Shown in pieces: positions 37,101-39,789 of a stretch of DNA of 64,000 nucleotides. Within the stretch, counting starts at the first letter, position 1. Every line of letters begins with the position of its first letter. Source of the stretch: Cirrosporium novae-zelandiae. Taxonomy: Eukaryota. The notes beneath the pieces were generated by a model, which had not been told where the DNA came from, did not search any database, and worked only from the letters and a program-made list of their open reading frames with translations. The stretch covers positions 124,001 to 188,000 of the forward strand of contig JAPETS010000020.1 of NCBI GenBank assembly GCA_026023565.1. Reading direction: 5' to 3'. The position numbers and the translations under genes are program-made.

Positions 37101-39789
37101 ATGGCACCCTCAAAGGAGCTCACTTATGAGAAAAACGAGCGGGTCTTCTGTTTCCACCATGACTTGCTCTATGAGGCCAAGATCTTGGACATAGAACCTG
37201 GAGATCCAAACGATGAAACTAAACCAATAACTTACCAAATCCATTACAAGGGCTGGAAGCATACGTGAGTTCTTTCCTGCTATCCAAGTCCCCAAGATCT
37301 TCGAGCTGCAGTCTATTGTTGTCATCTCTCTATTCTTCCCTTAAGGGAGAAGTGAGGGTTTGATTTGCTATCTTACGTCTGCGTTGTGCTTAGCACCTCG
37401 CTGCTATGTTTGTTTGAGTAGCAGCCTTTGAAATAGGTTGACTCTATATTACTTTTGAAGAGCATGATGTCTTGTATCCTCTGCTACTTACTTCTAATCT
37501 CTAGCTCTTTGTGCGTTTCAAAGTTGAGTTGTATTTTTCGGTGTTGAGTTTTGCATCACATGTCCACCTCTCTTGAGGTGATCTGTCCGGAGCAACACAA
37601 CACAAGCCTTCCATGCGTTCACTAGGAGCATCAGTATTGCATCCTCTTCTGTGGAAACAAATTCTGAGCTCTCTGTTGATTTTTGCTGTTCGTCCTTCTC
37701 ATGCATGAGATTTACCAAGTGTGATTTGTGTTGTTTACCAGTTACGCGTGGCGATACTAGCATATGTTACTTATTACATCCTTTCACATTTAATACTCCG
37801 ATGACGGCTTGGAGCTTGCCTCATTGCCTGTATATTTGCTAACGTGATATGCACTCTAGGTGGGACGATCATGTTCCAGTAGAGCGTCTTCGAAAGTTTA
37901 CCGACGAACACCGAGACCTTGCCAATACCCTGCGCAAGCAGAAGCTCGAAGATCAAGCTCGCGAACAAGCGGCTGCTTCGTCCAAGAAGAAACGCCCAAC
38001 CGCCACCGCGGCTTCCGACTTTAGTTCTCAGCGCGGATCCGAAGATTCCCCCGCACCCACAGGAAGGAGAAGAGCTGCAGCTGCTCAGAAGGACTATGAA
38101 ATTGAAAAGGTTGGTTCGACAACACAATCCACCCCAAATTCCCCATCTTCCCAGCGTTCATCTCCCGGAACGGCCATTCACCCCGAAGGACTGGAGGATT
38201 CCTCGTTTGCAAATCCTTTTCTATATTCCGGACCAGAGGATCATCAAGAAGACAACCAAGTGCCAGAACCATCAGAGCCCGCACAGTCAGAACCTCTCCA
38301 GAAGACCAAGAAAGGAGCAAGTACTATAAGATCGAGCTACAATCTCCGCGCGCGAAAACGCCCAGCTCTGGAGTCGGCGGTCTTAGAGGAAAAGCCAACA
38401 AAGCGTCGCAAGTGCGGCGGCAAAGAAGCCTCCAAACCAACTACAGCGACACTGATCACAAGGGTGACTCGATCACAGTCCGTAGCACTAGCCGAGAAAT
38501 CCACCACAGCACCTCAACGTAGAGTTCGAAAGACTCGTGCTCCCAACACTCAACAGCCAACCACAAGAGTGACAAGATCCCAATCGGCAGCACCAGAGAA
38601 ATCTTTAAAGAGAGAAGCGCCTCCAAATGGAGGAGTGCACGAGCCTTTAAAAAAAAGACTAAAGACGCAAGTTAAAGACAAGCTACAGTCGATCTCTAAA
38701 GATCAGATGGATCATGATGGTCAACGTACTGAGGATGCTCTCGCCCATAAAATGGAGGTCAATAAGGCAGAAGAAAATATGCCTATTCAGAACGAGCCCC
38801 CTGTTTTGGTTCAGCCAGCACCTACTGCTGAGGATAAAATCATGGTTGACGAAGCATGTCTTCCTGTTGCAGAAGAGCATACACAAGCGCGTTCTCGAAA
38901 ACACCAGTCCAGTGGTAAAGGTAAAGGCGGGACCACCAGATCCAATACGCAACGTCGAGGAACCAGAACTAACCCAAACCCTGGAGATGAACAACCCGGA
39001 CCATCGTTCCCTAACATTGAACCCAAACCCACTTCAAAAGCTAAAAAGACCCAAAAGTTGAATGTCAATAATAACGCACCCTTGCAGGAATCGAACTTCG
39101 TCTCGCGCCCGTCCGTGATGCTTCCCATGTCAGATACCCTAAAATCGCTTGCCGTCGATGATTGGGAAGCCATCACGAAGACCCTTGCCCTTGTGCCCCT
39201 TCCCTCAAAGAATCCCGTAAACAAAATCATGGATGATTATTACGCCGACCAGAAGACAAAGCGACGTGAAGGAAGCGCAGATATGGATCTGCTTGAAGAG
39301 TGTGTTGCTGGAATGAAGGAGTACTTTCACAAGACATTGGGCAAGATCTTGTTGTATCGTTTTGAAAGGGATCAATACTTTGAGATGAGCAGGCTGTGGA
39401 CTAACAACCCTGATGGCGTTGTTGACGAAGTGACCGGTGAGATTAAAAAGTATGAAGGACCTGGTGACGTTTATGGTCCTGAACATCTCTTGCGTCTATT
39501 CGGTAGGTTAATTCCTTGTTTTCTTCAGCTTCTCACGATTTCCTCATAATCTCCCACAATCCCCTCTCATGATTACAAATGTACTAACTACAGCCCTTCT
39601 ATAGCTTCTATGCCGGAGCTCATTGCCCAAACGACTATGGATGCCCAGTCTGTTGTCCGCCTCCGCGAAGAAATGACCAAGATGCTTAACTGGCTTGGTC
39701 GTCACGTCTCTGACTACTTTGTCGACAACTATATCCCCGCCAGCGTCGACTACATCGCCAAGGCAAGAGGTGTTGGGGCTCCTCAGTGA
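37101..39789 (+). CDS. EAF3: Chromatin factor Eaf3/MRG15 (chromo-barrel + MRG domain)
   Basis: Exons 37101-37264, 37860-38109, 39088-39502, 39605-39789 (337 aa). Motifs [43 protein letters not shown] and MPELIAQT. Intron 38110-39087 is in frame and stop-free. Confidence 0.93.

Follow-up and report, generated by a model that had tools for sequence, protein, structure and literature searches.

The EAF3 gene of Cirrosporium novae-zelandiae was found to carry, inside an annotated coding exon and with conserved Eaf3 sequence on both sides, a 978 nt segment that we interpret as a dual-use exitron, an assignment made from genomic sequence to which we give a probability of about one half. The gene can probably make both a short and a long Eaf3 protein. 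The locus was analysed within a 64,000 nt stretch of contig JAPETS010000020.1 (assembly GCA_026023565.1, positions 124,001 to 188,000 of the forward strand), referred to here as the window, and all coordinates are those of the window. The main gene model consists of exons at 37101-37264, 37860-39502 and 39605-39789, separated by introns at 37265-37859 and 39503-39604. With the segment (38110-39087) kept as coding sequence, as in the NCBI annotation, the model encodes a 663-aa protein identical to the deposited one (P0003), and with the segment removed it encodes 337 aa. The gene model thus bears out the two product lengths and the 326 stop-free codons given for the segment in an earlier note on this DNA, which had also placed the boundaries correctly: GTTGGT from 38110 after ...KDYEIEK, and TTGCAG to 39087 before a ten-residue peptide. 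The features of the locus are as follows.

37101..37264, + strand: EAF3 exon 1, from the ATG; N-terminal part of the chromo barrel (PF22732, E=4e-11), ending ...HYKGWKHT with two bases of the Thr codon; agrees with the N-terminus of P0003.
37265..37859, + strand: EAF3 intron 1, 595 nt; GTGAGT...GCTAAC...TAG; T-rich, GC 0.41; 8/13/8 stops per frame.
37860..38109, + strand: EAF3 exon 2, upstream part; end of the chromo barrel and conserved linker ...SQRGSED...KDYEIEK.
38110..39087, + strand: candidate exitron, 978 nt, 326 codons, 0 stops, at a conserved phase-0 intron site; basic disordered insert, residues 139-464 of the 663-aa form.
38110..38115, + strand: 5′ splice-site-like hexamer GTTGGT, Val-Gly if retained; same hexamer at the orthologous intron of loci L018, L040 and L076.
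38458..38502, + strand: peptide repeat copy 1, 15 residues.
38563..38604, + strand: peptide repeat copy 2, 14 residues; 7 synonymous and 2 non-synonymous changes relative to copy 1.
39069..39075, + strand: branch-site-like TAATAAC, with the branch A at 39074, 13 nt before the last base of the AG.
39085..39087, + strand: 3′ splice-site CAG, Gln if retained.
39088..39502, + strand: EAF3 exon 2, downstream part; N-terminal part of the MRG domain, from a ten-residue peptide to ...LLRLF.
39503..39604, + strand: EAF3 intron 3, 102 nt; GTAGGT...TACTAAC...TAG; the join gives a 14-residue peptide as in P0003.
39605..39789, + strand: EAF3 exon 3; C-terminal part of the MRG domain; stop TGA.

Pfam placed the chromo barrel in exon 1 (PF22732, E=4.3e-11; PF11717, E=4.2e-5) and the MRG domain (PF05712) on two exon parts with E=9e-37 and E=8.5e-11, the MRG match beginning at the 3′ edge of the segment, with the residue encoded at 39085.

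The site of the segment was compared with 49 distinct orthologous EAF3 loci from metagenome DNA. A phase-0 GT...YAG intron was present at the same codon boundary in 48 of them (46 loci together with L069 and L003), directly after E-I/L-E-K (or G-I-D-K) and before EE.F..RP. These introns range from 60 to 2003 nt, are mostly short or stop-bearing, end in CAG (40) or TAG (8), and in almost all cases contain a CTNAY branch motif 12-25 nt upstream of the acceptor. The edges of the segment were not cherry-picked, being those of the intron that 48 of the 49 orthologous loci have at this codon position. Removal of the segment also gives a junction (EIEK|E.NF) that matches EIEK|EESF in the short annotated forms P0037, P0029 and P0042. 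By this comparison, the segment is at a genuine, conserved spliceosomal intron site.

Splice signals are still recognisable at both ends of the segment, which retains GT, G at +5, T at +6, TAATAAC 13 nt before the AG, and CAG. Both the donor and the branch site had been called weak in the earlier note. GTTGGT does depart from the consensus 5′ splice site GTRAGT, but GTTGGT or GTTCGT is usual for this intron in long-intron relatives, including four in which removal is obligatory: L076 has GTTGGT and a 2003-nt interval with 18 in-frame stops, and L006, L036 and L044 have GTTCGT and stop-bearing intervals, as does L047. The branch-like AATAAC carries A where nearly all orthologues have C (CTRAC), and TAATAAC matches six of the seven positions of TACTAAC, a consensus quoted here from general knowledge. 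At 978 nt the segment is long for a fungal intron, the short orthologous introns being 60-336 nt.

The open frame of the segment is not a chance event. Stops per frame numbered 0/11/19 on the + strand and 12/11/13 on the - strand, against an expectation of 11.4-14.4; the 11-13 stops in each reverse frame ruled out a nested gene on the opposite strand. None of 20,000 mononucleotide shuffles and none of 20,000 first-order Markov simulations was open, and the analytic probability was 4e-7, a figure that excludes the further 1-in-3 chance of a length divisible by three. The segment showed three-base periodicity (position-by-base chi-square 51, p=3e-9), and comparable tests gave p=4e-7 for the flanking exons and p=0.06 for intron 1. 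Like the flanking exons, and unlike both true introns of the gene, the segment is A-rich with a GC content of about 0.5. Synonymous-codon likelihood favoured frame 0, which scored +26 bits where the other two gave -25 and -21, but the test has low power and carries little weight here, the mean for genuine long ORFs in the window being 0.008 bits per codon. A TRVTRSQS peptide motif is duplicated in the insert, and its two copies differ by seven synonymous and two non-synonymous changes (binomial p=0.003); no direct repeats were detected in the insert at the DNA level, and the peptide copies have diverged at synonymous sites. The marks of a non-coding intron, namely stops, a length free of multiples of three and intron-like composition, are not those of this segment. 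The open frame, the periodicity and the 7:2 ratio in the TRVTRSQS copies are signs of the protein-level selection that had been proposed for it.

The insert between the chromo barrel and the MRG domain is basic, with a net charge of +17, and predicted to be disordered, in agreement with its description in the earlier note. AlphaFold2 modelled residues 101-466 with pLDDT below 50 and without secondary structure, while the chromo barrel (residues 11-90, pLDDT 80-93) and the MRG domain were confident. KRRK/KKRLK-type clusters accompany the two TRVTRSQS motifs. A phmmer search with the insert against 1.84 billion representatives returned only the window's own protein and P0077, a bacterial repeat protein that we regard as a spurious match. 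A Pfam search of the insert (P0002) found no family, PF00172 included, and a transposon or borrowed domain was ruled out as its origin because it has no detectable homologue.

Long Eaf3 proteins with an insert at the same site were found in other fungi, dozens of them combining an open frame with a Val-Gly start (GT and a G at +5), codons resembling a branch site and a final Gln. The database sample contained 56 such proteins, including the window's own, with inserts of 116-652 aa starting with VG (36), AS (17), VR (1), VC (1) or QL (1), and of 66 long database forms, 64 have an insert ending in Gln. Asn or Asp occupied insert positions -5 to -7 in 35-41% of cases (background 8.8%), as expected if codons of a CTRAC branch site have been kept. 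Annotated long forms occur in Xylographa (540-549 aa), Loxospora (553 aa), Lambiella (510 aa), Pleopsidium (505 aa), Alectoria (542 aa), Sclerophora (464 aa) and Podospora aff. communis (585 aa). Most of the other inserts, 63 of 73 database forms, share a module of about 55 aa (HP.L...FF..QDP.L.LMIAGVP); a profile built from 35 sequences found it in 28 further database proteins and in L032 and L076, and gave E>1 in all frames of the window insert. A Zn(2)-Cys(6) domain (PF00172) lies within the inserts of L076 (21.5 bits) and P0075 (29.8 bits). With P0052 and L041 the window insert shares only the short motif TR.TR[SQ].

This database sample is biased, since the search was limited to proteins of 300-958 aa, so that orthologues with a frame-breaking intron could not appear, nor do the clusters counted stand for independent lineages. 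Of the loci in the unbiased DNA sample, the pair L018/L040 alone was fully open. On whether orthologous introns stay in multiples of three and free of stops, the outcome was mixed: 55 database proteins besides the window's own are open, and many orthologous introns carry stops or frameshifts. Signs of selection on the protein were found in this pair of relatives. The L018 and L040 intervals (777 and 789 nt, both GTTGGT...CAG) differ at codon positions one, two and three by 14/7/22 changes and by three indels of 24, 3 and 33 nt, all multiples of three. Their insert dN/dS was 0.41 overall and 0.25 in the first 150 codons; the insert dS was 0.26 against 0.089 in the exons, a threefold difference, and the central part of the insert aligns poorly. 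These values describe the L018/L040 pair; as the window insert has no detectable homologue, selection on it is not measurable against a relative. The ENA, Logan and JGI proteins used are genomic read-through ORFs in which intron 3 is unspliced, and hence none represents a transcript. Among the loci, L004 and L005 lack introns and have the size of an mRNA, and L031 has a poly-A end; none of the three could be linked with a conspecific long-intron locus.

Taken together, we favour a model in which an ancestral phase-0 intron of EAF3 would have become open, in-frame, translated sequence in this lineage while its splice signals were kept. Removal of the segment would give a canonical 337-aa Eaf3 with chromo barrel, a linker of about 85 aa and MRG domain, whereas retention would give the 663-aa protein, its chromo-MRG linker lengthened by the 326-aa insert. 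Both mRNA forms would be made, and the long linker could give Eaf3-containing complexes unspecific affinity for DNA or nucleosomes, or additional reach. A weaker version fits the same data, in that a long intron with modest signals may often be retained, with selection keeping read-through harmless within a disordered linker. Regulation of the retention and an effect on the choice between the NuA4 and Rpd3S complexes, both proposed in the earlier note, are speculation.

Several of these observations can also be read in other ways. An old intron that has been fully exonised, and is never or negligibly spliced, would leave the 663-aa protein as the only Eaf3, with GT and CAG surviving merely as parts of Val and Gln codons. 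That possibility, which we hold to be real though doubtful, agrees with the public annotation, with exon-like composition and periodicity, with the GTTGGT donor and with a branch-like AATAAC that is weaker than CTRAC, the form in nearly all orthologues, with a length far above that of the short orthologous introns, and with a peptide repeat under constraint. In the annotation, however, we saw no stated RNA support, and the same donor hexamers serve orthologues in which splicing is obligatory (L076, L006, L036 and L044). Furthermore, long forms with unalignable interiors keep a GTN first codon, a middle G in the second (Gly, Arg or Cys) and a last Gln, and are enriched in Asn or Asp where branch codons would fall, which is not the pattern of decaying relics.

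The opposite case, an ordinary intron that is always removed to leave canonical 337-aa Eaf3 and whose open frame has no meaning for the protein, we consider improbable. It would account for the orthologous position in 48 of 49 loci, most of whose introns are clearly non-coding, for the normal length of the spliced product and its P0037-, P0029- and P0042-like junction, and for an insert without homologue or domain, but it has to contend with 326 open codons (P about 4e-7; 0 of 40,000 simulations open), periodicity at p=3e-9 where intron 1 gave p=0.06, the excess of synonymous changes (7:2) between repeat copies, and a composition that differs from the two true introns of the gene. A different transcript architecture, in which internal alternative 5′ or 3′ splice sites take out only a portion of the segment, or translation from an inner start yields an MRG protein without the chromo barrel, is likewise unlikely in the window. 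Hints of it come from orthologues that are open only in the downstream-exon frame (L032 and L076), mostly open in the upstream-exon frame (L008, L041 and L044) or open over 269 codons in a frame matching neither flank, resembling a cassette exon (L020 and L022), and from P0076, P0049 and a frame of L049, which start M-A-R-V-T-R-S-like and resemble the TRVTRSQS of the window. However, the whole window interval is in frame with both flanks, so an inner splice is unneeded; no consensus-like donor was seen inside the segment when it was read by eye rather than formally scanned, and Met precedes neither TRVTRSQS copy.

The dual-use exitron reading can be extended to a broader and more tentative proposal, that one old EAF3 intron may have become a switchable coding cassette across several classes of Pezizomycotina, with splicing deciding whether this H3K36me3 reader carries an extra DNA- or partner-binding arm. 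The full exitron would then be found in the window, L018/L040, Xylographa and others, and elsewhere the open frame would be joined to one flank or to neither; the cassette would encode a basic disordered tail, the conserved module of about 55 aa or even a Zn(2)-Cys(6) DNA-binding domain. The acetyltransferase complex NuA4 and the deacetylase complex Rpd3S both rely on Eaf3 as their H3K36me3 reader, and the reach of each complex and its DNA contacts are set by the tether between the reader and docking domains of Eaf3. A 326-aa basic tether switched by splicing would, if real, provide a new handle on the aiming of NuA4 and Rpd3S, and in other lineages the switchable part would be the conserved module or the zinc-cluster domain; were the broader proposal also correct, it would amount to splicing-controlled retargeting of two opposing chromatin enzymes. 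A practical consequence concerns annotation. Lasallia Eaf3 is annotated at 325 aa and its close relatives have open intervals of 186-195 codons; gene predictors give a long or a short protein for the same kind of locus, so that Eaf3 annotations in fungi with open intervals are inconsistent. Those parts of the literature available to us yielded no account of an exitron or splice isoform for fungal Eaf3, nor of an intron converted into an exitron in fungi; there, papers using the term exitron deal almost entirely with plants or animals, and the papers found on Cirrosporium concern taxonomy.

Both predicted forms of the window protein share the chromo barrel and MRG domain of the Eaf3/MRG15 family, a subunit of NuA4 and Rpd3S, the short form being normal in both length and junction; the long form differs by its 326-aa basic insert between the two domains. 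To our knowledge yeast Eaf3 is without such an insert. Two copies of Eaf3 are present in the structure of yeast Rpd3S on a nucleosome, where they engage both H3K36me3 tails and also contact DNA (PMC10709384). Long Eaf3 proteins of lichen-forming and other ascomycetes have their insert at the identical site, mostly starting with Val-Gly and ending with Gln, and differ in that 63 of 73 carry the module of about 55 aa and some a Zn(2)-Cys(6) domain, the window insert having neither. Mammalian MRG15 has splice isoforms and a chromo-less paralogue, MRGX, a parallel case in that a single MRG-family gene or family gives rise to proteins varying within or close to the reader domain; neither the events nor the positions are those of the EAF3 segment, and no homology was seen between the variable parts. 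The definition of exitrons, or exonic introns, reportedly goes back to work by Marquez et al. in 2015 on Arabidopsis and human. The EAF3 segment shares with them its place inside an annotated coding exon, GT-AG borders with a branch-like site, a stop-free length divisible by three, exon-like composition and codon structure, and splice signals below consensus, and its removal or retention would likewise yield two in-frame proteins differing by a disordered stretch. It differs in being very long for a fungal intron and in being a candidate recognised from genomic sequence alone. Its origin also appears to be reversed: exitrons have been proposed to derive from exonic sequence, whereas the EAF3 segment would be an old, widely conserved constitutive intron site turned coding and, if so, would supply fungi with a clear example of an intron that became an exitron, the exitrons described to date being mainly from plants and animals.

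The EAF3 gene of the window contains a candidate exitron, an intron-like interval within a coding exon that is in frame and may be spliced or translated. The gene model is as follows.

EAF3 gene model in the window
37101-37264, + strand: exon 1, chromo barrel (Pfam)
37265-37859, + strand: intron 1, GTGAGT...GCTAAC...TAG, 595 nt
37860-39502, + strand: exon 2, which includes the candidate exitron segment
38110-39087, + strand: candidate exitron segment, GTTGGT...TTGCAG, 978 nt
39503-39604, + strand: intron 3, GTAGGT...TACTAAC...TAG
39605-39789, + strand: exon 3

We verified the coordinates of the in-frame segment reported in the earlier note, together with its GTTGGT and TTGCAG ends and its 326 codons without a stop, and reproduced both proposed product lengths. 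Removal of the segment gives 337 aa; retention gives 663 aa, identical throughout to P0003, the protein deposited for the window itself under the name 'MAG: Esa1p-associated factor [Cirrosporium novae-zelandiae]' (class Xylobotryomycetes by taxonomy lookup). The MRG domain was matched by Pfam across the final two coding parts, beginning at the residue encoded at 39085. Intron 1 is also long for a filamentous ascomycete (595 nt, versus approximately 230 nt for its orthologue in the metagenome locus L018) and has 8-13 stops per frame.

Stops in the segment number 0/11/19 in the frames of the + strand and 12/11/13 in those of the - strand, against an expected 11.4-14.4, and an open segment arose in none of 20,000 shuffles and none of 20,000 Markov simulations (analytic P = 4e-7). 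The segment is A-rich with a GC content of ~0.5, as in the flanking exons and unlike the T-rich intron 1 (GC 0.41), and its base use varies with codon position (chi-square 51, p=3e-9; the same test gave p=4e-7 for the flanking exons and p=0.06 for intron 1). A synonymous-codon score, which has low power in this genome, gave +26 bits for frame 0 versus -25 and -21 for the others. Over 14 codons, two copies of a peptide repeat, at 38458 and 38563, differ by 7 synonymous versus 2 non-synonymous changes (p=0.003), with no repeat in the segment detectable any more at the DNA level; of the evidence in the window itself, this 7:2 divergence points most clearly to a peptide that matters. P, S, T, K, A, E, R and Q abound in the encoded insert; its net charge of +17 and AlphaFold2 pLDDT below 50 over residues 101-466 agree with the basic, disordered insert described previously, and the chromo and MRG domains of the 663-aa form are predicted with confidence. 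No Pfam family was found in the insert, nor any homologue of it among 1.84 billion representatives.

An Eaf3 alignment scanned against metagenome contigs identified 79 loci (L-numbers). Our counts use the 49 distinct loci with both flanking anchors, identical copies dropped, which are distinct sequences rather than independent lineages; 20 further loci without one or both anchors lie outside the count. In 46 of these, the stretch lying between ...E-I/L-E-K (or G-I-D-K) and EE.F..RP opens with GT and closes with CAG or TAG; with L069 (97 nt, GTGGGT...CAG) and L003 (204 nt, GTATGT...CAG) added, an intron occupies the segment's site in 48 of the 49 loci, L005 being the sole locus without one. These introns range from 60 to 2003 nt, and almost all intervals have a CTNAY motif 12-25 nt ahead of the acceptor. 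Most are plainly non-coding. The idea that orthologous introns stay 3n and stop-free held for L018 and L040, which are open, and failed for many others, four of which are listed next.

Orthologous intervals with stops
L036: 602 nt, 7 in-frame stops, length mod 3 = 2
L047: 625 nt, 5 in-frame stops, length mod 3 = 1
L049: 1449 nt, 16 in-frame stops, length mod 3 = 0
L076: 2003 nt, 18 in-frame stops, length mod 3 = 2

Long orthologous introns use the donor GTTCGT in 8 loci and GTTGGT in 3, and the window's GTTGGT is therefore normal for this intron, also in loci where removal is unavoidable; this qualifies the earlier note's description of the donor as weak.

The open pair of loci allowed rates to be compared.

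Open intervals of the pair
L018, 1871-2648: 777 nt, GTTGGT donor as in the window, pyrimidine-rich end, CAG
L040, 3643-4432: 789 nt, GTTGGT donor as in the window, pyrimidine-rich end, CAG

Insert dN/dS was 0.41 overall and 0.25 over the first 150 codons, with a poor alignment in the low-complexity centre of the insert, and 0.023 in the flanking exons. Differences in the insert fall 14/7/22 by codon position. Each of its three indels (24, 3 and 33 nt) has a length divisible by 3, and a 1-nt indel is present in intron 1. Insert dS is ~3 times that of the exons (0.26 vs 0.089). On inspection of the alignment the insert appears far more diverged than intron 1, and just two sites differ in the last 135 nt ahead of the acceptor.

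A protein search returned 74 proteins (P-numbers), including P0003; the search covered lengths of 300-958 aa, and orthologues with a frame-breaking intron therefore could not appear. All Eaf3 proteins from ENA, Logan and JGI are genomic read-through ORFs, which demonstrate open frames rather than transcripts. Exactly at the segment's site, 56 of the 74 carry an insert, 116-652 aa long (median 229), and three have none (Lasallia, 325 aa; Ramalina, 331 aa; Thelocarpon, 328 aa).

Insert borders in database proteins
Start VG: 36 proteins
Start VR: 1 protein
Start VC: 1 protein
Start AS: 17 proteins
Start QL: 1 protein
End Gln: 64/66 long forms
N or D within positions -9 to -4: 58/66 long forms

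Gly, Arg and Cys at the second insert residue are chemically unlike, yet all have G in mid-codon, which is donor position +5. Asn/Asp make up 35-41% of residues at positions -5 to -7 versus 8.8% elsewhere in inserts, which fits codons spelling CTRAC. Insert interiors are otherwise unalignable between families; within families they evolve ~10 times faster than the flanks (70-86% vs 96-98% identity) and remain open, with indels of whole codons. On this evidence relatives appear to hold open frame and splice signals jointly. The Ala-Ser group (17 proteins, e.g. P0045, P0054, P0056-P0059), which replaces Val-Gly, could reflect a GC-AG donor (GCA AGT) or donor loss. The flanks of P0037 (named Lasallia pustulata, 325 aa) are 95-98% identical to those of P0008, P0010 and P0017, genomic ORFs from close relatives in which an interval of 186-195 codons stays open; loci of one kind are therefore annotated short in one genome and read long in others.

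Among the 73 other database proteins, 63 have in common a ~55-aa module (HP.L...FF..QDP.L.LMIAGVP.E) within the insert. Its carriers include proteins named as from Xylographa, Loxospora, Pleopsidium, Alectoria and Podospora; examples are P0004 (residues ~255-320), L032 (frame 1) and L076 (frame 2). The module was not found in the window, L018/L040, L008, L041 or L044. A Zn(2)-Cys(6) domain is present in the inserts of P0069, P0070 and P0075 by protein search, and Pfam scored the fungal Zn(2)-Cys(6) binuclear cluster (PF00172) at 21.5 bits in L076 and 29.8 bits in P0075. In these orthologues (for L076, 3294-5258, +) the cluster is encoded by the frame that runs into the MRG exon, and the product would be an MRG protein of the Eaf3 type equipped with a DNA-binding domain. 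Intervals are open in the downstream exon's frame in L032 and L076, mostly open in the upstream exon's frame in L008, L041 and L044, and open in the third frame, matching neither flank, in L020 and L022. This last interval (810 nt after RDTEIEK, 269 open codons, 9-16 stops in both flank frames) looks like a cassette exon between two small introns. All that the window insert has in common with Podospora P0052 and L041 is a TR.TR[SQ] motif. The motif recurs in inserts of distant lineages (window 38458-38502 and 38563-38604; P0052 residue ~363; L041 nt ~1154; L049 nt ~4210) and at the N-termini of P0076 and P0049. Three times an ORF within the interval begins with an M-A/T-R-V/T-T-R-S-like string, a hint of an internal start or of an alternative first exon. 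Given these open frames, modules and varied continuity with the flanks, the site reads as one where coding sequence repeatedly grew inside or beside an old intron, the window representing the version that is in frame throughout and whose basic insert is an orphan. The metagenome collection also includes transcript-derived Eaf3 contigs, since L031 has a poly-A run at its 3' end and both L004 and L005 lack introns and are of mRNA size.

We read the segment as a dual-use, exitron-like intron, with a probability of about one half. Splicing would yield canonical Eaf3, and retention a long Eaf3 whose tether is basic and disordered; a weaker variant on the same data is a long intron of modest signal, often retained and rendered harmless by its open frame in a linker. 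A constitutive exon is a lesser but serious contender, favoured by how the gene is annotated publicly, by a branch site (AATAAC) that is weaker and by the segment's length. Constitutive splicing would have to accommodate the open frame, the periodicity and the 7:2 ratio, and seems improbable, as do other transcript architectures at the segment.

The yeast Rpd3S-nucleosome structure (PMC10709384) shows two Eaf3 copies that bind both H3K36me3 tails and contact DNA; because of these contacts, a longer basic tether between chromo and MRG domains could plausibly change reach or DNA affinity. Titles and abstract openings returned by literature searches contained no report of an Eaf3 exitron or of fungal Eaf3 splice isoforms. 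Exitrons are already a known kind of element. The usual exitron is proposed to originate in exon sequence, whereas the EAF3 interval apparently derives from a conserved intron and its pattern extends across lineages, and it is in these two respects that it would go beyond known exitrons.
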